In this document: positions 15,158-52,586 of the stretch, in pieces | How positions within the stretch are numbered: the stretch's first letter is position 1 | Layout of the letters: each line of letters opens with the position of its first letter | Source of the DNA: Fimicolochytrium jonesii | Lineage: Eukaryota | Assembly (NCBI RefSeq): GCF_025526975.1 | Contig: NW_026515691.1 | Span: forward strand, 1-64,000 | DNA: 64,000 nucleotides | Direction: 5' to 3' | Program-made: the position numbers and the translations under genes | Notes under the pieces: model-generated | Databases searched by the model: none | What the model was told of the DNA's origin: nothing | Seen by the model: only the letters and a program-made list of their open reading frames with translations

Positions 15158-18100
15158 TCACCCCCTCCTTGAGCCACGGCGTCCGGATGTTGTTTTGATG
15201 TTGGCAGGCTTTGGTCGGGGTTTGTCGGGGTACTTTTGGTGGAACTGGGCAACAAGCTCTTGACATCGGGCAAGGTGTTCCACTGGCTCCCATGTGTTCT
15301 CCGAGCTTGGCCAACCCTGCCACTTGATGAGGTACTGAAGGTGCGTGCGTCGAATACGGGAGTCAAGAATGTCTTCCACAATCCATTCCTCCTGTCCTTC
15401 GACTTCTTCTGGTGGGGTGGGTTCTGGCTCAGTTCGCTCCGGAATGGTGAAACGTGGTTCAAGAAGGGAGACATGGAAGACGTTGTGAATTTTGTAGGAT
15501 GGGGGAAGCTTGAGGCGATATGTGACCGAGTTGATCTTCTCCGTGATTGTGAAGGGGCCAATCTTACGGTGATCAAGTTTCTGGGAAGGTCGGAGAGTCT
15601 TGAGATTCCGCTGTAAGAGCCAGACACTGTCCCCGGGTTTCATGTCTGGGCCAGGTGCCCTCTTAGCATCGGCAAAGCGCTTCATGCGTCCTTGGGCCTC
15701 CTTGAGCTCAGTGGCAAGCTGTTCATGGATTTCCTTGAGATGGTTGGCACGAGCTTCGGCTGCAGGATTAAGGGATTCGGTTGTGGTGGCGGAAGCCAGA
15801 CTGAATCGAGGATGGAACCCATAGTTGGCGTAGAAGGGGGTTGTCTGGGTGGCGGAGTGGATGGTGTTATTGTAAGAGAACTCAGCAGAAGACAAGAGTT
15901 CCTTCCAGTTATCTTGTTGATAGTTGCAAAAGCAGCGAAGGTATTGCTCAAGAATCTGATTGGTCCGCTCGGTTTGTCCATCGCTCTGGGGATGGAACGC
16001 CGATGAGAGGTTGACCTTGGTTCCCAGGAGAGCGAAGAGACGTTTCCAGAAGTGGGAGTTGAACTGTGGGCCACGGTCAGATACAATATCGTCGGGGAGT
16101 CCATGGAGCCGGATGACATGGTGCCAGATCAGATCTGCAGTTGACTCAGCGGTGGCAGTTTTCCTGCACGGTACAAAGTGCGCCATCTTGGTGAACCGGC
16201 AGATGACAACGAGCACAGAATCAACCCCATCACTGGCGGGTAGATCCGTGATGAAGTCCATGGAAATTGACCCCCAGGGGCGGTCAGGGACCTGCAGGGG
16301 TTGGAGGAGACCGTAGGGCTTGTGTCTGCTGGTCTTGGCTTGAGCACATACGTCGCAGGACCTGATGTAGGACTTGACAAAACGCCACTGGCTAGGCCAC
16401 CAGTAGTTGCGTGAGATGAGCTCCAGGGTCTTTGACATGCCGTAGTGTCCTGCCAAACGCGTGTCATGCATGTCCCGGCAGATCTCAGCACGGAGCTTGT
16501 TGGTGGGGACGTAGACAAGGTTGTCGTACAGCAGAACCCCATTTTCCTCGGAGAATCGCTTTATCCGTTCTTGGTCTTCTTGAGATTGCTGGGCAATGGG
16601 GGCCCTAAGCTGTCGCCGGATGGTTTGCGCAAACACATCGGATGCCAGGGCAGCTTTGATTTGGTCAAGGAGCGAGGAGTCCAGTGGGGTCAGATAAGTG
16701 GCGGCCAGGCGGAGATGGTCAGGGGTGAGGATCGTGGTTTCCTGGGAGCGGAATGCTTCTTCCCCCTCCCTTAGCTCGTATTCAGAGCGACGAGAGAGGG
16801 CGTCAGCTTGGTGTTGCTGGGTACCAGGGCGGTATGTGATGACAAAGTCAAAATCAGCAAAGAAGATTGACCAGCGGGATTGGCGGCGGTTGAGGGTACG
16901 GGTAGTCATGAAGTACTGGAGGTTCTTGTGGTCACAGTAAACGATGACCTTGTGGCGGGCACCAATGAGGTGGTGTCGCCATTGAGCAAATGAGTCTTGG
17001 ATAGCCAGGAGTTCCTTGTCGTAGATCTCATAGTTGATTTCCTCAGGAGTAAATTTGCGGGAGTGAAAGGCCACGGGGTGGAGTTGATCTGTGTCGTCGG
17101 GTTGAAGGAGGACGGCGCCAAGGGCAAAGTCGGAGGCATCGGATTCGACAATGAAGGGCTTGTCAGGGTCGGGGTGAGTCAGGATAGGTGCGGAGGTGAA
17201 GGCTTTCTTGAGGGTTTCAAAAGCTAGGTGTGCAGCGTGGGTCCATTTGAATGGCAAGTCTTTGCGAGTGAGCGTGGTCAGGGGTGCAACGATCGCAGAG
17301 TACCCTTGGATGAATCGCCGGTAGAAGTTGGCAAAACCAAGGAAGCGCTGGATGCCTTTGACATTCGTCGGGGGTTCCCATTCGGTAATGGCAGCCGTCT
17401 TCTTTGGGTCCATGGAAATGCCTTGCTGGGAGATGATAAACCCCAGGAACTCAACAGAGTCACGGTTGAATTCGCATTCTTCCGGTTTCGCATACAGCCC
17501 GTGCTGGCGGAGCCGTGAGAGCACCTCAGGGACGTGGTTGGGGTGGTTTTCTGGGTTTTTTGAGAAGATCAGAATGTCGTCAAGGTAGACCACAACAAAA
17601 ACGTCGAGAATGTCACGGAATATGTCGTTCATGAGGTGTTGGAATACTCCAGGGGCATTGGTGAGCCCAAACGGCATGACATTATACTCGAATAGGCCGT
17701 AGCGACATCGGAACGCTGTCTTCCATTCATCCCCTGGCCGGATCCGAAGAAGGTTGTAGGCTCCCCGGAGGTCAATCTTGGTGAGCTGGCGTGCCCCTCG
17801 AAGACGATCCATGATGCTGTTGATCAAGGGCAAGGGATAGCGATTCTTGATGGTGATATTGTTGAGTCCACCATAGTCGACGCACAGACGGAGGGAACCG
17901 TCCTTTTTCTTGACAAAGAGGACTGGGGCACCGGCGGGAGACTTGGAGTGCTTGATGAACCCCTTAGCTAGGTTCTCTTCAAGGTAGTCACAGAGTGCCT
18001 GCATTTCAGGCTCGCTGAGACTATAGATCGGGCCGAACGGTGGCTGTTTGCCCTCTTCTAAGTCGATGGGACAGTTGTAGGGTCGGTGCTCTGGGAGGGT

Positions 18101-19042
18101 ATCCGCGTTCTTCTTGGTGAAGACGTCCGCAAAATCTTGGTATTCTTCAGGTATGCTGGCCTTCGGATCTTTTGGAGGAGTGGTCGCCAGGGCTTGGGAA
18201 TCTGACTTGGTCGGATTGGCGTAGGCAATGAATGCCTGGTCATGCCTTGCCGCCACACGGAAAGCTGGGGCGCTGATAAACGATACGTGGATCGGTGTGG
18301 GTGCTGGGTCCAGTGTGTTGGGTGTCTGGGCTAGGGAGACTGAAATCTCGTCTTGATGGATACGGATCAGAGGTTCAGGGGTTTTTGAGGGCTTCGGGCT
18401 AGGTTCTGTTGGCAGGGCATCCCAGGAGGCGTATTGTCCAAAACCGCAATGGCAGCGGACGCAAAGAGTGCGAGTCTTCCAGTGTAGCTCCACATCATGG
18501 AGCTCAAACCAGGGAAGCCCCAGGATGATTGGCGCATGCGGGGAACATGTCACATGGAATACCACCTCCTCAAAATGGTCGTTGACCCACATGCCCAAAG
18601 GTTGGGTGTGATGGGTAATGGAGCCCGCATGGCTGGGACGTCCGTCAACCAGTTCAAGCGCAATGGGGTCCTCCTTCTTGACAAGTGGGATGCGGTGCTT
18701 GCGGGCATAACTTTTGTAGATGAAGCACGACATCGCACCGGTGTCGAGTAGTGCTGAAAGCTGAACTGGAGCTTGCTGGGCCGATATCTGCAGGGTAACA
18801 GGGTACTCGAATGGTGAGGATGGGCCCAAAGTCCGCATGGGTGGGGGTATCTCAGATAGGAGATTGACATTGTTGGTGGTCAGGAGAAGGGTGTTGCTGG
18901 AGATGCCAGGATCGGAGCAAGGTTTTGTGGCTTCTCCCTTGGCAGTACTGGCGTGGTGAGAAGGCCCAGGACAGGTGTTGCCCAGCTGCTCGGCCTTTAC
19001 TGCAGCTGGACTTGGGCAAAATCCTGGATGGGTGCAGGTTCC
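15158..19042 (-). CDS. pol: Pol polyprotein (protease, RT, RNase H, integrase, chromodomain), -1 frame relative to gag
   Basis: LLDTGA (PR); YLDD (RT); SDASDFALG/DKELLAI (RNase H); HHCC motif and D-D-E 'SMDFI..VSDRG..GQTERTN' (IN); C-terminal chromodomain 'YLIKWQGWPSSENTWEP'. The frame is open from 19042 (first ATG at 18838) and overlaps the end of gag. Confidence 0.95.
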   Translation of the reverse strand, partial: GTCTHPGFCPSPAAVKAEQLGNTCPGPSHHASTAKGEATKPCSDPGISSNTLLLTTNNVNLLSEIPPPMRTLGPSSPFEYPVTLQISAQQAPVQLSALLDTGAMSCFIYKSYARKHRIPLVKKEDPIALELVDGRPSHAGSITHHTQPLGMWVNDHFEEVVFHVTCSPHAPIILGLPWFELHDVELHWKTRTLCVRCHCGFGQYASWDALPTEPSPKPSKTPEPLIRIHQDEISVSLAQTPNTLDPAPTPIHVSFISAPAFRVAARHDQAFIAYANPTKSDSQALATTPPKDPKASIPEEYQDFADVFTKKNADTLPEHRPYNCPIDLEEGKQPPFGPIYSLSEPEMQALCDYLEENLAKGFIKHSKSPAGAPVLFVKKKDGSLRLCVDYGGLNNITIKNRYPLPLINSIMDRLRGARQLTKIDLRGAYNLLRIRPGDEWKTAFRCRYGLFEYNVMPFGLTNAPGVFQHLMNDIFRDILDVFVVVYLDDILIFSKNPENHPNHVPEVLSRLRQHGLYAKPEECEFNRDSVEFLGFIISQQGISMDPKKTAAITEWEPPTNVKGIQRFLGFANFYRRFIQGYSAIVAPLTTLTRKDLPFKWTHAAHLAFETLKKAFTSAPILTHPDPDKPFIVESDASDFALGAVLLQPDDTDQLHPVAFHSRKFTPEEINYEIYDKELLAIQDSFAQWRHHLIGARHKVIVYCDHKNLQYFMTTRTLNRRQSRWSIFFADFDFVITYRPGTQQHQADALSRRSEYELREGEEAFRSQETTILTPDHLRLAATYLTPLDSSLLDQIKAALASDVFAQTIRRQLRAPIAQQSQEDQERIKRFSEENGVLLYDNLVYVPTNKLRAEICRDMHDTRLAGHYGMSKTLELISRNYWWPSQWRFVKSYIRSCDVCAQAKTSRHKPYGLLQPLQVPDRPWGSISMDFITDLPASDGVDSVLVVICRFTKMAHFVPCRKTATAESTADLIWHHVIRLHGLPDDIVSDRGPQFNSHFWKRLFALLGTKVNLSSAFHPQSDGQTERTNQILEQYLRCFCNYQQDNWKELLSSAEFSYNNTIHSATQTTPFYANYGFHPRFSLASATTTESLNPAAEARANHLKEIHEQLATELKEAQGRMKRFADAKRAPGPDMKPGDSVWLLQRNLKTLRPSQKLDHRKIGPFTITEKINSVTYRLKLPPSYKIHNVFHVSLLEPRFTIPERTEPEPTPPEEVEGQEEWIVEDILDSRIRRTHLQYLIKWQGWPSSENTWEPVEHLARCQELVAQFHQKYPDKPRPKPANIKTTSGRRGSRRG

Positions 19043-19923
19043 TTAACCGCGACATTCGCCGTGCGTATCTTGTTCGGGCAGAGTTTGGCTATGTGGCCGG
19101 GTTTACCACAGTAGAGGCAAAGTTTGTTTGTGATGCGGTGTTGGCGCTCTAGCGGTGTGAGGGGTCCTCGCGGACGAGCAGCGTCAATGATCATAGGGTC
19201 GTCTGGGCGGTTGTCGGGGCTCATGAGGGTGGGGCTAGTGGTAACTGGCACATATGGCTGTCGGTTCCTGCTTCGCTCTAGACGGCGCTCAAACAATCGG
19301 TTGTCACATTGGATGGCCTGTTCCATCACGGTGTCGATTGAGGCGGTAGGGGGCATCGTGAGCATTAAGTCCTTGACGTCTTCTTTGAGGCCGCGACGGA
19401 AGGTGGCAATCAATGCCTGGTCATTCCACGACACATCGCATTGCAGCTGTCGGAATTCAGCTACATACTCTGTTGCTGCACGGGTTTGTCGAAGGTTCTG
19501 GAGCTTGTTTTCGGACGTGCGGATCCTGTCGCTGTCTCCAAAGACTGCTTGCATTTGCTGGATGAAATCATCCAGGTTCGTAAGGGAATGATGGTCTTGT
19601 TCGACAAGGGGCGCCAGCCAGGCCTGGGCGGTGCCAGTGAGGTAGGTGCCAATAGTTCGTATCTTGGTCTGATCGTTGGGGTAGCGCCTGGGTTGGAGGG
19701 CGAACATGAGCCGGATCTGGTTGAGGAACCCACGGAACTTGCTTCGGGTGCCATCAAATTTGTCTGGGAGACTGATTTTGGGTTCGGGGGCGTGGGTGGC
19801 AGGGGCAGTGGTCTGGGTTTGCGCTAGTTCGGCCTGTAGGGTGGTATTCTGCGCTCGAAGTTCGTCAATCGCATTGCACATGGCTTGCCAGGCTTCGGCC
19901 GTGAGGGGAAGGGCGTCGGACAT
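18997..19923 (-). CDS. gag: Gag (capsid plus CCHC zinc knuckle)
   Basis: 'PDKFDGTRSKFRGFLNQ', 'LRQT..ATEYVAEF', 'FRRGLKEDVKD' and zinc knuckle 'CLYCGKPGHIAKLC'. Confidence 0.95.
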   Translation of the reverse strand: MSDALPLTAEAWQAMCNAIDELRAQNTTLQAELAQTQTTAPATHAPEPKISLPDKFDGTRSKFRGFLNQIRLMFALQPRRYPNDQTKIRTIGTYLTGTAQAWLAPLVEQDHHSLTNLDDFIQQMQAVFGDSDRIRTSENKLQNLRQTRAATEYVAEFRQLQCDVSWNDQALIATFRRGLKEDVKDLMLTMPPTASIDTVMEQAIQCDNRLFERRLERSRNRQPYVPVTTSPTLMSPDNRPDDPMIIDAARPRGPLTPLERQHRITNKLCLYCGKPGHIAKLCPNKIRTANVAVKEPAPIQDFAQVQLQ

Positions 19924-19974
19924 GGTGATTTGGCGTGGAGGTACAGCGGCTGGGGGTTGTTGAGCAGATCAAAC

Positions 19975-20504
19975 TGTTATGAATGGGCGGAGCCGAGGGA
20001 AATAGAGGCGACTTGTGGTGCAGGTTGTTGACAGGTAATGGTATTCAGACCGAAACAAGAACTAGAACAAGACTAGGAAGAACTGGTGTCGATCTGCTGG
20101 GGGATCAGGAAGTGGGGAGCTCAGGGGAGGCGGCTATTTATGTTTTTCTGGGAAGGCTGGGGAAGCGTGGGGAAGCAGAAGGGTACGGAATGAGAGGGAA
20201 GCCAAGAGAAGCGCCAAGGGTGGGGAAGCATAGAAACAGAAGACTGGGGATGGGGTGGCTACGCTGAGGCTGTGGGCGGGTACGTGGGGAAGTATGGAGA
20301 AGGGTTTGTAAGCGCCGAGTGTTGGGAGGTGTGGCTACGTGCGGCTGCGTGGAGAAATGAAGGCAGTGGCAGGTGTGGGGTAGCGCGGCTGCGTGCGGCT
20401 GCGAGGTTTGGCAGATGTCAGGTTTTGACAGGGAATTGACATTGACTGACTGTTGGGATGCTGTCATGAGGTAAGCGCATGGTATGGACGCGTCGTCCAT
20501 AACA
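19975..20504 (-). repeat. 5' LTR (530 bp)
   Basis: Same termini as the 3' LTR, with a longer and different internal block around 20160-20232. Confidence 0.95.
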
Positions 20505-20589
20505 ATGATAGGGGCGCGTGGCGCAAGGTGTATTGTATTTGTTCCCGCAAGCGCTATAACTAAGAATGCTGTTTCTGCCGACTATATAT

Positions 20590-22164
20590 TCACGGATCTA
20601 CCCGCCAGTGATGGGGTTGATTCTGTGCTCGTTGTCATCTGCCGGTTCACCAAGATGGCGCACTTTGTACCGTGCAGGAAAACTGCCACCGCTGAGTCAA
20701 CTGCAGATCTGATCTGGCACCATGTCATCCGGCTCCATGGACTCCCCGACGATATTGTATCTGACCGTGGCCCACAGTTCAACTCCCACTTCTGGAAACG
20801 TCTCTTCGCTCTCCTGGGAACCAAGGTCAACCTCTCATCGGCGTTCCATCCCCAGAGCGATGGACAAACCGAGCGGACCAATCAGATTCTTGAGCAATAC
20901 CTTCGCTGCTTTTGCAACTATCAACAAGATAACTGGAAGGAACTCTTGTCTTCTGCTGAGTTCTCTTACAATAACACCATCCACTCCGCCACCCAGACAA
21001 CCCCCTTCTACGCCAACTATGGGTTCCATCCTCGATTCAGTCTGGCTTCCGCCACCACAACCGAATCCCTTAATCCTGCAGCCGAAGCTCGTGCCAACCA
21101 TCTCAAGGAAATCCATGAACAGCTTGCCACTGAGCTCAAGGAGGCCCAAGGACGCATGAAGCGCTTTGCCGATGCTAAGAGGGCACCTGGCCCAGACATG
21201 AAACCCGGGGACAGTGTCTGGCTCTTACAGCGGAATCTCAAGACTCTCCGACCTTCCCAGAAACTTGATCACCGTAAGATTGGCCCCTTCACAATCACGG
21301 AGAAGATCAACTCGGTCACATATCGCCTCAAGCTTCCCCCATCCTACAAAATTCACAACGTCTTCCATGTCTCCCTTCTTGAACCACGTTTCACCATTCC
21401 GGAGCGAACTGAGCCAGAACCCACCCCACCAGAAGAAGTCGAAGGACAGGAGGAATGGATTGTGGAAGACATTCTTGACTCCCGTATTCGACGCACGCAC
21501 CTTCAGTACCTCATCAAGTGGCAGGGTTGGCCAAGCTCGGAGAACACATGGGAGCCAGTGGAACACCTTGCCCGATGTCAAGAGCTTGTTGCCCAGTTCC
21601 ACCAAAAGTACCCCGACAAACCCCGACCAAAGCCTGCCAACATCAAAACAACATCCGGACGCCGTGGCTCAAGGAGGGGGTGATGTTATGGACGACGCGT
21701 CCATACCATGCGCTTACCTCATGACAGCATCCCAACAGTCAGTCAATGTCAATTCACTGTCAAAACCTGACATCTGCCAAACCTCGCAGCCGCACGCAGC
21801 CGCGCTACCCCACACCTGCCACTGCCTTCATTTCTCCACGCAGCCGCACGTAGCCACACCTCCCAACACTCGGCGCTTACAAACCCTTCTCCATACTTCC
21901 CCACGTACCCGCCCACAGCCTCAGCGTAGCCACCCCATCCCCAGTCTTCTGTTTCCATACTTCCCCACGTACTCGCCCACAGCCTTCCCAGAAAAACATA
22001 AATAGCCGCCTCCCCTGAGCTCCCCACTTCCTGATCCCCCAGCAGATCAACACCAGTTCTTCCTAGTCTTGTTCTAGTTCTTGTTTCGGTCTGAATACCA
22101 TTACCTGTCAACAACCTGCACCACAAGTCGCCTCTATTTCCATCGGCTCCGCCCATTCATAACA
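20590..22164 (+). mobile_element. 5'-truncated second copy of the same chromovirus (integrase core, chromodomain, PPT, LTR 21684-22164), inverted orientation
   Basis: Reverse complement of 14677-16251 (1575 bp) with the same integrase/chromodomain translation; no matching TSD at the left junction. Confidence 0.93.
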
Positions 22165-43977: not shown

Positions 43978-44392
43978 AAGCCGTAGAGTATGGCGTGCGG
44001 TGTATGTGTAGGCCAGTTAGATAAATACATAGATTCTGCTCTCGTCCGACATCTCCTCGTTTAGGCCCAATAATATATCTTCTCAATTCTATGGCTGCAA
44101 AGCAGACAGAGCTCTACGCTCGTCGCATGGCGTCCCGTAGGCCGCGACGCGTGCCGCATCTGACTGACAGTGACCTTCTTCACAAGCCTCTGCGCCGTTC
44201 CCTTCGTTCCTTTCTTACTGCCTCCACCGCTTCAAAGACCAACATCTTCCCCATACGTGAGAATTTTTTTCTTTGACCAGCTGGGGATAGTCAGCTGAGC
44301 TACATGCGACCATCTCACGCTTGAACCGGTAATGCTGCGAGTGCCTTTGGGATCTGCCTGCCGCTGATGAGTTGAAATCTCTAGCTCCACGT

Positions 44393-44430
44393 GGGGTTAG
44401 GGTTAACCCTTTCGGGTTAGCCCTAACCCC
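44393..44430. repeat. Inverted telomere-like repeat hairpin
   Basis: GGGGTTAGGGTTAACCC-TTTC-GGGTTAGCCCTAACCCC: 17-bp arms with a single G/T mismatch. Confidence 0.85.
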
Positions 44431-48809: not shown

Positions 48810-49667
48810 CTATCTACCATACGCCTGGCTTCTCTCGCCATCTTCCTGATGCTCTGATCGATGTTGCTCTCCTTCAGCACCCTGTTCGTGGTGACTGGCG
48901 CGGAGGTCCTCATCCGCTCTTCTTGTAACGTTGATGCCACCTACGTAGATTTTTGACCCATGAGCAATGAGTCTAAATTTTCCAGACATATCCGACGCTA
49001 CTTACGTTGTGCCACCTTGATCTTTGCGATATTGGGGCCTTCCCCTTTTGCCTTGTAATAACTCAGCTTTCCCTCGACAATAACATATGCCCTACAAAAC
49101 CAAGGAACGGTTCCTCAATAACCGAAGTAAACTGTCTCCCACGTTAGAATAAAGGGTATAAGTAGTCCGTACCCCTTCTCAAAGTCTTGAGGCAGCTCTC
49201 CCTCGAGCTGGACCTGGTGCCACAGGAGGACGTTCTTCCATTCCCCCGTCTCCGGATTCTTCTTGCCCTCCCTGGTCACAACAGGAAAGTTCCACCTACC
49301 CGTCCCGTCTTTGAACTCCACTCTCCTCGCATCATCACCGACGCGACCGTGTACGATGACCTTCTGGTAATCGGCTGCGGGCAATTCTAGTCGTTAGAGT
49401 CGGTGGAAGCATAGGACTGAAAGTGTCCTTTTCACATGGAAGATGGAAGGGTCTCATGGACGCGGAACTTACGACGGAGGAAAGCGGCAGGAGTTGTGCT
49501 TGTGAATGACTAGATCGAAGAAGATAGAAAGACAAAAGGTTCGCCCGGTAAGCAAGATGGTTTCATCTGGCCGCGAGAGATGACCTGTCACTGGCCGGGA
49601 GACCCTCCACACTCACCCTTGCTTGACGCAGGACAGGACAGGCCCGGCGAGCCTGAGTGAGGAACAT
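48810..49667 (-). CDS. RIM1: Mitochondrial single-stranded DNA-binding protein (SSB OB-fold), multi-exon
   Basis: Presequence 'MFLTQARRACPVLRQAR'; SSB fold 'KVIVHGRVGDD...WHQVQ...FEKG|AYVIVEGKLSY'; TAG at 48810-48812. Confidence 0.75.
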
Positions 49668-50109
49668 TCTTATCCAAGCTGACAGCTTCAGATAAATGCG
49701 ATACGGTGAGAGGACGCTTGCTGCTCGCTCGGTTGGAAGTTGATGAGTTGTGGGGGGCTGGGAGGGAAGATTGTTGACGTGAGCAGCGGGAGACTCCTTG
49801 CGACGTGCGGATGTCCGAACTGACTGCTGCGCCACTTGCCCGTCTGGGGTCTACATTTACAACACGACATGCTGGTGCACGGCTTTCCATCTGCGCTCTC
49901 TCATCAGCGCACTTCCAAAGCTGGCTCCCAGGGCACATCACCTGCAAGTCTCTCGCCAAAAAGGTCTCTCTGTGGGAAGATAGGAAACGAACGGCTCGCA
50001 ACTCCGGCGCCGCACACGCAGTACGTACACAAATCCCCGCTAGCGGTCATAGATGCTGCCTCTGGTTTCGTTCTCGGAATGGAGCAGAGCGCGTGCATCC
50101 CGCGGAATA

Positions 50110-50949
50110 GCGGGCAGGGCAGTCTGACCACTACGGCTTTCACCCCAGACGGAGATATGGAAAGCTAGTAGGCTGTGTGTGACAGCCAAATAGCTAGGGT
50201 CTTCCTTTCTGGTGTGCCTCCTGTCCCATCCGGACTGTCGAGGCTCTGAGAGGATACCCCGAGTAGATGGCTGCTCACGCTCACCGAAACACTTTTCTCA
50301 CCTGATGGGAGAACCTAACCCTAAGTGTGTGTCGGGGCGTTGAGAATCGTGTTCGAGCAACCTGGCTGGAGACGTCTGTTTGTGCACGTCTGCGTTCGCG
50401 CAGATTGCTTTGCTGAACAGAGCCGTCTCTCTGCCTGCTCACATTGATGCTCCGCTTTGACGATGGCTTTGGTCATCGCCCTCATGCCCAGTATTTTACG
50501 GCTGTCTTTGACTGGGTTTCTGCTTGGGCAAACGCCCAACAGAACAAAAAAACTACAAGACGGTCTTAGGTCGCTGCCCGTACCTGTGTTGATATGTGTG
50601 TGCGGCTTGCCATTGCGTGCTTTGATCTTTCCTATCGAAATCGGGCTGGGGACGTACATCACCCCACGGAGACGCCTTGACAGCGGATGAAGACGATCTC
50701 TGCCATGCCTAGAAGCTGCAACCTTCGTTGGAGTTGGGGGAAAGTTTCGCAACAAAGGAGGGAAAACCGTCGGTAACCCTCGGGTAGGCCGTGCGTTAAA
50801 GGTTCGTCCTTGCTATTCCCTCCCGACGCGACATTGCTGCCTTTTTGGAGGTGTGCAAATTCCCTCGGCTTATACCAAACAGCGCTGCAAGTGGCGATAA
50901 TGGGCTTGGCATCGAGACTGTCTGGAACGTCTGTCTGGAGGACTTGCGG
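50110..50949 (+). ncRNA. Candidate telomerase RNA (TER/TR); ends approximate
   Basis: Template CCTAACCCTAA (50314-50324) directly after a hairpin (50295-50313); H-type pseudoknot (50487-50565); enclosing helix 50117-50129 / 50569-50579; CR4/5-like three-way junction (50757-50823) with P6.1 AAGG-UUCGU-CCUU; no credible protein ORF. Confidence 0.8.
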
Positions 50950-51280
50950 GTAAGTGGAGTGTGTTGTGGGATCATGCGCTCCCCTGCCCAAATTTTTTAC
51001 CTCCTGACTTGCAAGATGTCGGTCTTTGAACTGAGTATCAGTGGGATTCTGGTCTTTCAGAACCCCTCGAACTCACTTCAAAGGTCCCTCTGCAGTTTGC
51101 GGGAAATAAGAATTAATGCAATACTCCTTGGGATTGCCAGGGTGCGCCAAAGGCGGAGATTTGTCGGTCAAATTGTCGGTCACAACTGTCGATGCTATTC
51201 CCCAGCTTAGCAATATATGCAAAATGTGGCAAACGTAGGTACAAAGTGAACGAGGTTTGCGGCACCCCATGTTGCAAGTG

Positions 51281-52252
51281 CTACCTCCATGGCCGCCGTT
51301 CACTCGGTGGCCGTGCTTTTGTACTGGTCATGGAATGTGGTCTCGCCCGCATCGCAATCTCGCTGGGATGCCAATGCGTAAAACCACTCTTCCAGCATAG
51401 CCTCCCCTTCCCTCCTGTCAACCTATCCGCATCGTATCTCGAATCGACGACACCAGCGTCCCTCGTTCTCCATCGACCACCAGGCCTCGATCTCGAGGTA
51501 GCCAGCACATCGTCTTCGGCAAGAAAATCGGTAAGCGTGCAGCTAAAGTCGACCTCGGCTTTCGTCGAAGTACGCAGATATGGTCGACGGCCATCTACCG
51601 TGGGTGGTGGGCATCCGCGCTTCGGTATTGGACGCGAGTGCGGGTCGCGCTTTTCGTTATGCGAGCGTCGTGCCTGTGCTAGTCTTTTGGTGAAGTTGTG
51701 CAGTGCCAGCTGCGGTCGTGGGATTTGGGTTTGAGATGGAGGGACCGTTGTTCTGCCGCGCTTTGTGGGTTGCGGCGGTGGTCGGTGCGCTGTAGGGTCT
51801 TTCGGCTCAGCTTTCGTGGTCGGTCGCCCGTGATAAGCTCTCGTGTAGATGTTGCTCGAAGGTGCAGGTTTGCGCGTATACGACGCAGGGATCTTTGGCC
51901 CCTTCGACGAACACCCTTCCCTCCAGCGCCTTCTTCCCCTCTCCGCATCCTCATCGCCTTCCATCCCCACCCGAGCGTTCCGCATGCTCCCTCCCGCCTC
52001 CGCATCCCGCACATCCACACAGCCCCCCGCCACCGTCGAAATCACACCATCAATCTCCCTGTCACTCGACGCCGAAATCAGCCCTAATACCTCGGCGAAC
52101 AGGTTCTCGAGCTCGTCGCGCATGACTGTTATTCGTCCCGCTACACGCTCGGCATCGTCTAGCATTCGTAGGTATTCGGCTTCTGAGCCTTGCGGGATAT
52201 TGGAGGATTCGGATATCGAGTGTAGTTCTGGAATGTCTGATGTGTCTGACAT
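51281..52252 (-). CDS. Hypothetical protein (N-terminal coiled coil, basic low-complexity C-terminus)
   Basis: 323-aa ATG-initiated ORF, divergent from MIX23. No recognisable domain; exon structure uncertain. Confidence 0.45.
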   Translation of the reverse strand: MSDTSDIPELHSISESSNIPQGSEAEYLRMLDDAERVAGRITVMRDELENLFAEVLGLISASSDREIDGVISTVAGGCVDVRDAEAGGSMRNARVGMEGDEDAERGRRRWREGCSSKGPKIPASYTRKPAPSSNIYTRAYHGRPTTKAEPKDPTAHRPPPQPTKRGRTTVPPSQTQIPRPQLALHNFTKRLAQARRSHNEKRDPHSRPIPKRGCPPPTVDGRRPYLRTSTKAEVDFSCTLTDFLAEDDVLATSRSRPGGRWRTRDAGVVDSRYDADRLTGGKGRLCWKSGFTHWHPSEIAMRARPHSMTSTKARPPSERRPWR

Positions 52253-52586
52253 GGTTGATTGCTTTGTGCCTGGCGCACGACTGTTTTTGCAACGAGGCTA
52301 TTAGCAATCTTGAATTGCGAGCAAGATGAAACAGACGGAGACCTACAGAACATGTATGGATCGATAGAGAGCCCCAGGCTCCTGGTTCTTGCAAAAAGCA
52401 AAGCAGCCATGATTGAGGCCGCCGCCATGTTCGACATATTTCCGGACGGCCGACGCTTACGTTAACGCGTTCGAGGCTTGCAACATCATCCACTCGGAAG
52501 TTCCGATGTTCGGTAAGCTCCTATTCCCCGGCCAGTAGATCTAGACCTGCTACTCTGTGTAAATCTTCGTCCCTAAAACAACCGCA

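Follow-up and report, generated by a model that had tools for sequence, protein, structure and literature searches.

A segment of about 1.0 kb in the genome of the chytrid Fimicolochytrium jonesii is most probably the gene of its telomerase RNA, of the non-yeast fungal type (probability about 0.87). The predicted gene is located at 49941-50949 on the + strand of the window, by which we mean the whole stretch of 64,000 nucleotides that was analysed; its ends are approximate, and the 3' end may alternatively lie near 50999. Along the + strand, the elements follow each other in the order of terminal helix, enclosing arm, inner helix, boundary hairpin, template, two hairpins, pseudoknot and distal junction arm. 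The identity of the host is clear from the window itself, in which a HECT-ligase frame matches a named F. jonesii protein with 100% identity along 582 residues, while the next matches (75-80% identity) come from other Spizellomycetales. The candidate is likely a new telomerase RNA of a known type, in a phylum for which no published one was found in the literature searched.

The pseudoknot and its predicted triple helix

The pseudoknot is the element from which the analysis started, and it is likely the triple-helix knot of the template-pseudoknot core of the F. jonesii telomerase RNA. A sequence-only reading had described its parts, and all of them were found on the + strand at the positions given there: stem 1 (50487-50492 with 50511-50516), the U-rich loop 1 (50493-50499), stem 2 (50500-50508 with 50557-50565; 9 of 9 pairs, including two G-U pairs), a hairpin inserted in the downstream loop (50518-50544) and an A-rich linker containing a run of seven A's (A7; 50545-50556). 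Stem 1 (PK1/P2b) is lengthened to 7 bp by a G50486-U50517 pair, with the 5' strand at 50486-50492 and the 3' strand at 50511-50517. For stem 2 (PK2/P3), the 5' strand may extend over 50500-50510; a bulge at U50509 together with a G50510-C50556 pair would bring the gap between the two stems to zero, at -7.4 kcal/mol vs -7.9 kcal/mol for the 9-bp form.

The same reading had noted a one-base difference from the human P3 strand, and the comparison agrees with it: 50501-50509 differs by one base from GCUGACUUU, which is contained in the human-derived DU177 construct as printed in PMC8266650. At the composition of the window, the chance of at least 5 of 6 matches before UUU is about 0.005, for a register that was picked post hoc.

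The inserted hairpin folds at z -4.99 (0 of 200 shuffles), and stem 1 together with this hairpin folds at z -3.51 (0 of 200 shuffles). Unlike in vertebrate TR, the flank after stem 1 is predicted to form a hairpin of its own (p 0.93-0.99) and not a P2a extension; the best duplex of the flanks has interruptions and is weaker (-12.9 vs -14.4). The A7 run is predicted to be unpaired (p 0.88-0.98). Folding without constraints in a nested ensemble gives two main pairings that exclude each other, stem 1 (p about 0.49) and stem 2 (p about 0.29), as expected for an H-type knot in a program that cannot form knots. For both strands of stem 2 there are competitors with equal or better energy, at 50181-50187 and 50914-50923.

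In the proposed structure, the two stems would be stacked without a gap between them. Four purines (50557-50560) open the 3' strand of stem 2, so that four U's of loop 1 could form triples. These U's (U50494-U50497, the predicted third strand) would lie in the major groove along the predicted Hoogsteen face of the purine run, giving U.A-U, U.A-U, U.G-C and U.A-U triples; U.G-C triples have been reported for yeast telomerase knots (PMC13541005). The one base by which the strand differs from the human one would extend this purine run. The minor groove of stem 1 is the predicted path of the A7 linker, and the inserted hairpin, like PK2.1 of Neurospora, would point away from the knot.

The junction of the two stems also separates two possible registers of stem 2. 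In the 9-bp form, the only junction U-A pairs are U50507-A50558 and U50508-A50557, so the triples would be mixed, unlike those of human TR; in the DU177 knot, the junction has three U-A pairs and the major groove three triples (PMC8266650). Registers with three such pairs are 2.5-4.2 kcal/mol worse in the candidate. If the locus is a telomerase RNA, stem 2 might nevertheless take the human register. U50507-U50509 would then find their partners in three A's of the A7 run, six bases would form a loop, and the result would be three U.A-U triples like those of human P2b/P3. For this arrangement speak the 5' strand, which equals the DU177 strand at 8/9 positions, the three triples of DU177 itself (PMC8266650), the available A7 run and the fact that the energies leave out tertiary contacts. 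Its energy is -3.7 kcal/mol vs -7.9 kcal/mol for the continuous 9-bp stem, and we consider it unlikely. The continuous 9-bp stem is the form preferred here.

Predicted template, enclosing helices and distal junction

A template-like run of 11 nt, CCUAACCCUAA, is located at 50314-50324 on the + strand, 162 nt upstream of the knot. TERT would copy it into TTAGGG repeats, with 3-5 template bases serving for realignment, and another chytrid, Batrachochytrium dendrobatidis, has TTAGGG telomeres (PMC11797018). It is the sole run of at least 10 nt on the + strand of the window, and runs of at least 11 nt appeared at a rate of 0.054 per shuffled window (355 shuffles). A hairpin at 50295-50313 (p 0.88-0.98), whose last base directly precedes the template, is likely the template boundary element; copying would end at this hairpin, which abuts the 5' edge of the template. 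The region around it (50285-50330) folds at z -1.94.

Within the template, 50314-50322 is predicted to be unpaired (p 0.99-1.0), while the last two A's are predicted to be paired, which points either to a template of 9 nt as in Neurospora or to a misprediction. These two A's are taken by a predicted 6-bp helix (50289-50294/50323-50328) that leaves the template in a 9-nt bulge. A boundary hairpin together with a template closed into a bulge would, if real, be an odd geometry for a telomerase RNA. Between the template and the knot, the predicted fold contains a long hairpin (50331-50461) and a short one (50462-50477), and 50330-50462 folds at z -4.48.

The whole region 49940-50939 folds at z -4.05 (0 of 20 shuffles), with an energy of -427 kcal/mol on the + strand vs -375 kcal/mol on the - strand. 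Its two ends are closed by a predicted terminal helix (49941-49950 with 50941-50950), which has 10 bp (p 0.99) in the fold ending at 50950 and 7 bp (p 1.0) when the fold ends at 51000. When the knot strands are held free, the 5' strands of the core-enclosing arm lie at 49961-50031 (p 0.96-0.99). The predicted core-enclosing helices are 49967-49976/50663-50672, 49979-49987/50628-50636 and 50009-50020/50595-50606, of which the last (12 bp) is the strongest between both flanks. Besides, an inner core-enclosing helix pairs 50117-50129 with 50569-50579, just 3' of the knot (p 0.95-1.0). According to this model, Pol II would transcribe an RNA of about 1.0 kb, in which the closing helices hold the template beside the knot.

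Downstream of the core, a CR4/5 three-way junction is predicted at 50757-50823, on which the MFE and centroid structures concur. It contains P5 (50757-50764 with 50816-50823; 8 Watson-Crick pairs, p 0.96), a predicted P6 (50768-50795) and a P6.1-like hairpin (50799-50811; 4 Watson-Crick pairs, p 0.93). The 5-nt loop of the latter, UUCGU, fits the consensus NUNGN, which covers both Neurospora and vertebrate P6.1 (PMC3592445). Compared with the vertebrate P6.1 15-mer printed in PMC10035886, 50798-50812 is identical at 9 of 15 positions, and two inner pairs are changed on both sides. The junction would bind the RNA-binding domain of TERT as the second essential domain of the RNA.

Taken separately, the parts of the junction are not distinctive. 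Its fold is weak (z only -1.54; 16 of 200 shuffles), and neither P6.1-like hairpins alone (39 in the window vs 32.5 in shuffles) nor a loose three-way-junction descriptor (4 vs 2.2) exceed chance. As controls, we also examined 815 overlapping anchors at other places in the window. A template of at least 11 nt was located upstream of 4 anchors and a P6.1 with a Watson-Crick P5 downstream of 5, and template and junction occurred together at none of them (0 of 815).

The 3' end, neighbouring genes and rival explanations

The 3' end would be made in the fungal manner, by spliceosomal first-step cleavage or by trimming to an Sm site. For the former, the candidate cleavage site is a consensus 5' splice site, GUAAGU (50950-50955), at the end of the terminal helix; this hexamer has 5 occurrences on the + strand of the window. 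Past it come a branch-like CUGAC (51004-51008), the next AG at 51015 and the next CAG at 51041. We place cleavage at 50949/50950 just short of even odds. For the latter, an Sm-site-like U6 run at 50990-50999, one of 4 Sm-like sites on the + strand of the window, is predicted to be unpaired and follows a hairpin at 50948-50989; a 3' end trimmed to this site, near 50999, rates a little further below even. Since the Sm-like run lies downstream of GUAAGU, which reverses the published order, only one of the two signals would be in use, unless a weaker donor-like site at 51035-51042 takes the place of GUAAGU. Together with a branch/acceptor at 51072-51095, this weaker site follows the published order, but it is within chance, and the intron signals were read from alignment gaps.

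We also observed an inverted repeat at 51020-51090, just past the Sm-like site, which overlaps the weak intron-like signal (51035-51095). Folds of windows within 50900-51199 have a z of about -4 on the - strand and of about -2 on the + strand. A box H/ACA end was not found: the one ANANNA, at 50872, is within an arm, and 50882-51181 contains no ACA.

The site is located in the gap between an SSB-like gene and a frame at 51281-52297, both on the - strand. The SSB-like gene (fragment 49115-49393 and upstream) matches Pfam PF00436 with E 3e-4, below the cut-off, and in a Pfam scan of 16 frames it was the only frame with E < 0.001. It sits downstream of MCM4 and a few hundred bases from the candidate RNA. 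It is likely the mitochondrial SSB; it would be divergent from the candidate RNA, with which it could possibly have a common promoter. Upstream of the MCM4 frames, there is a telomere-like cluster at 44392-44430, with a 12-nt run on the - strand and a 9-nt run on the + strand, which may represent promoter sites for a telomere-repeat-binding factor. Further away, 15158-21683 contains retrotransposon frames of the Ty3/gypsy chromovirus type (gag, and pol with a chromodomain), and a further integrase-chromodomain frame runs along the other strand. Coding readings of the candidate region were rejected: a Pfam match to TssG (E 0.002) was below the cut-off, and an upstream + frame (49778-50107) has as its sole match a tandem-repeat protein over 19 residues, which is not credible.

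The locus might instead encode another structured non-coding RNA, or the 3' end of a neighbour's transcript, with an ENE-like triple-helix element for stability, and the template run would then be a telomere box of a promoter. Triplexes of U-rich and A-rich strands are not exclusive to telomerase, according to a review (PMC13541005), and the 12-nt run upstream of MCM4 indicates that telomere-like runs occur here outside telomerase RNA. Rfam searches point the same way, as they returned 3 matches each and, at E up to 10, none to a telomerase family. What this explanation leaves unexplained is a boundary hairpin that ends exactly at the template, and P5, P6 and P6.1 in the right order. Moreover, the flanking genes on both sides are on the - strand, so that a fold on the + strand does not belong to their UTRs. 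We regard such an RNA as improbable in comparison with a telomerase RNA.

Still less probable is chance complementarity in an intergenic or repeat-derived region, with a non-functional knot. We described the knot by a stem 1 of at least 6 bp, a U-rich loop, a stem 2 of at least 9 bp and an A-run, with thresholds that were partly fixed after the site was known. On both strands of the window this descriptor has a single match, the pseudoknot site. Of 297 dinucleotide shuffles of the window, 10 also contain a match, a rate at which such matches are to be expected when many windows are scanned, and 6 of the 119 AT-rich metagenome matches listed fit the descriptor as well. Against chance stand the co-occurrence of template, boundary hairpin and junction, with template and junction found together at none of the 815 anchors, and the z of -4.05 for the 1-kb fold. 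The least probable explanation is a frameshift or read-through pseudoknot in protein-coding or retroelement sequence: reporter constructs show that frameshifting can be stimulated by the human knot (PMC8266650) and Ty3/gypsy copies are present at 15158-21683, but the + frames across the knot are short (50 and 80 codons from stop to stop), the 80-codon frame has no Pfam match above the cut-off, and for a 163-codon - frame none of 45 candidates is a homologue at E up to 1.

Relation to known telomerase RNAs

We searched metagenome contigs for orthologues of the candidate telomerase RNA. The strict knot pattern gave 0 loci. With a looser pattern, shared with the human-derived strand, 119 matches were listed, of which 80 had flanks of 1200 bases and the rest of about 300. 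Among the matches listed, none combined a stem 1 of at least 6 bp with a template of at least 9 nt, and none of the 6 that fit the knot descriptor had a template of at least 9 nt upstream. No orthologue from which covariation could be read was recovered among the loci listed. Several recurring matches (L136, L151, L173, L206, L235 and L250; 6 of 10 loci checked) turned out to be the antisense of three-tRNA clusters and were rejected as chance. Viral contigs, scanned three times as a gauge of the chance rate, gave 120, 1 and 13 loci.

In the full-text literature searched, which mostly excludes subscription papers and whose supplements may hold further sequences, no chytrid telomerase RNA is described. 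The published fungal telomerase RNAs found there come from ascomycetes and basidiomycetes, and chytrids are unmentioned in the accessible parts of PMC9564094, PMC9841428 and PMC12506658. The sole proposal for a basal fungus, a ciliate-like candidate from Lichtheimia, appears in PMC4133162 as unsupported and without a homologue in other basal fungi.

Qi et al. (PMC3592445) described a vertebrate-like knot with contiguous helices, together with P6/6.1, in filamentous ascomycetes and fission yeasts, and the knot and P6/6.1 form in their account a core common to vertebrates and non-yeast fungi. In the Neurospora knot, a conserved helix, PK2.1, is inserted in the variable downstream loop (PMC3592445). 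The candidate is like the Neurospora crassa TER, as presented in that paper, in most parts of its architecture. Both have a boundary element and a TTAGGG template of 9-11 nt, which two helices separate from the knot. PK1 and PK2 are contiguous (in F. jonesii a zero gap is possible with one bulged U), helices enclose the core, and the downstream loop contains an extra helix, so that the F. jonesii hairpin is the positional equivalent of PK2.1. A P5/P6/P6.1 junction with a 4-bp P6.1 and a NUNGN loop completes the likeness. The candidate differs in its length (about 1.0 kb vs 2049 nt) and in the Sm-like site near its 3' end, a site that was not observed in N. crassa (PMC3592445). Unlike Pezizomycotina TER, it has no telomerase match in Rfam.

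Basidiomycete TERs, from Malassezia (PMC12506658) and Ustilago (PMC9564094, PMC10035886), are similar to the candidate in the template, two stems before the knot, a CR4/5 with P6.1, and a terminal helix with an Sm-like U run after it. The U6 run of the candidate is comparable to the AAU5-6CY site of Ustilaginales. The Malassezia TER has about 500 nt (PMC12506658), compared with about 1.0 kb here, and the Ustilago TER is cut from a protein-coding mRNA (PMC9564094, PMC10035886), whereas here the one upstream + frame tested has no credible homologue. The predicted 3' end is like that of fission-yeast and Aspergillus TER (Kannan et al., PMC4299874) in its 5' splice site, branch-like site and AG, and the distance from the branch point to the next CAG (34 nt) is long as in S. 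pombe. In those fungi the Sm site comes before the donor (PMC4299874); in the candidate the Sm-like run comes after GUAAGU.

The resemblance to vertebrate P2b/P3, which the sequence-only reading had put first, is borne out in part. Eight of the nine P3 letters agree with the human strand, the U-run is three bases ahead and an A-run stands before the 3' strand (PMC8266650). P2a and the box H/ACA end of vertebrate TR were not found in the candidate, and in its best register the junction has two U-A pairs, compared with three in the human register (PMC8266650). The P6.1 region is identical to the vertebrate one at 9/15 positions, with inner pairs changed on both sides (PMC10035886), and animal TRs, at 239-609 nt, are about half as long as the candidate.

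That reading had also suggested an animal-like ancestral core retained in an early-diverging fungus. The knot is most probably that of a telomerase RNA and the host is a chytrid, but in the light of PMC3592445 a specially animal-like core is not supported. Qi et al. provide a precedent both for the animal-like core in fungi and for the extra hairpin, so neither of them is a novelty. The letter-level likeness to vertebrates in P3 (8/9) and P6.1 (9/15) is notable as a comparison of sequences, and one sequence cannot separate inheritance from convergence under shared constraints.

As the knot is of the textbook kind and its hairpin has a precedent, the value of the candidate would lie in its lineage and in the whole gene, and not in a new mechanism. 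It would place a chytrid example between animals and Dikarya. The question of which features are ancestral could then be addressed, setting the contiguous knot, PK2.1, P6.1 and 3' ends at Sm or splice sites against H/ACA ends. It is possible, though we hold it rather doubtful, that the chytrid RNA preserves an ancestral fungal and partly opisthokont state, with near-vertebrate letters in P3 and P6.1, a PK2.1 predating ascomycetes and spliceosomal cleavage of the 3' end at a canonical donor. If true, PK2.1 and spliceosomal 3'-end formation would date to the base of Fungi, and the RNA would provide a sequence seed for telomerase RNAs across chytrids, zygomycetes and the unicellular relatives of animals.
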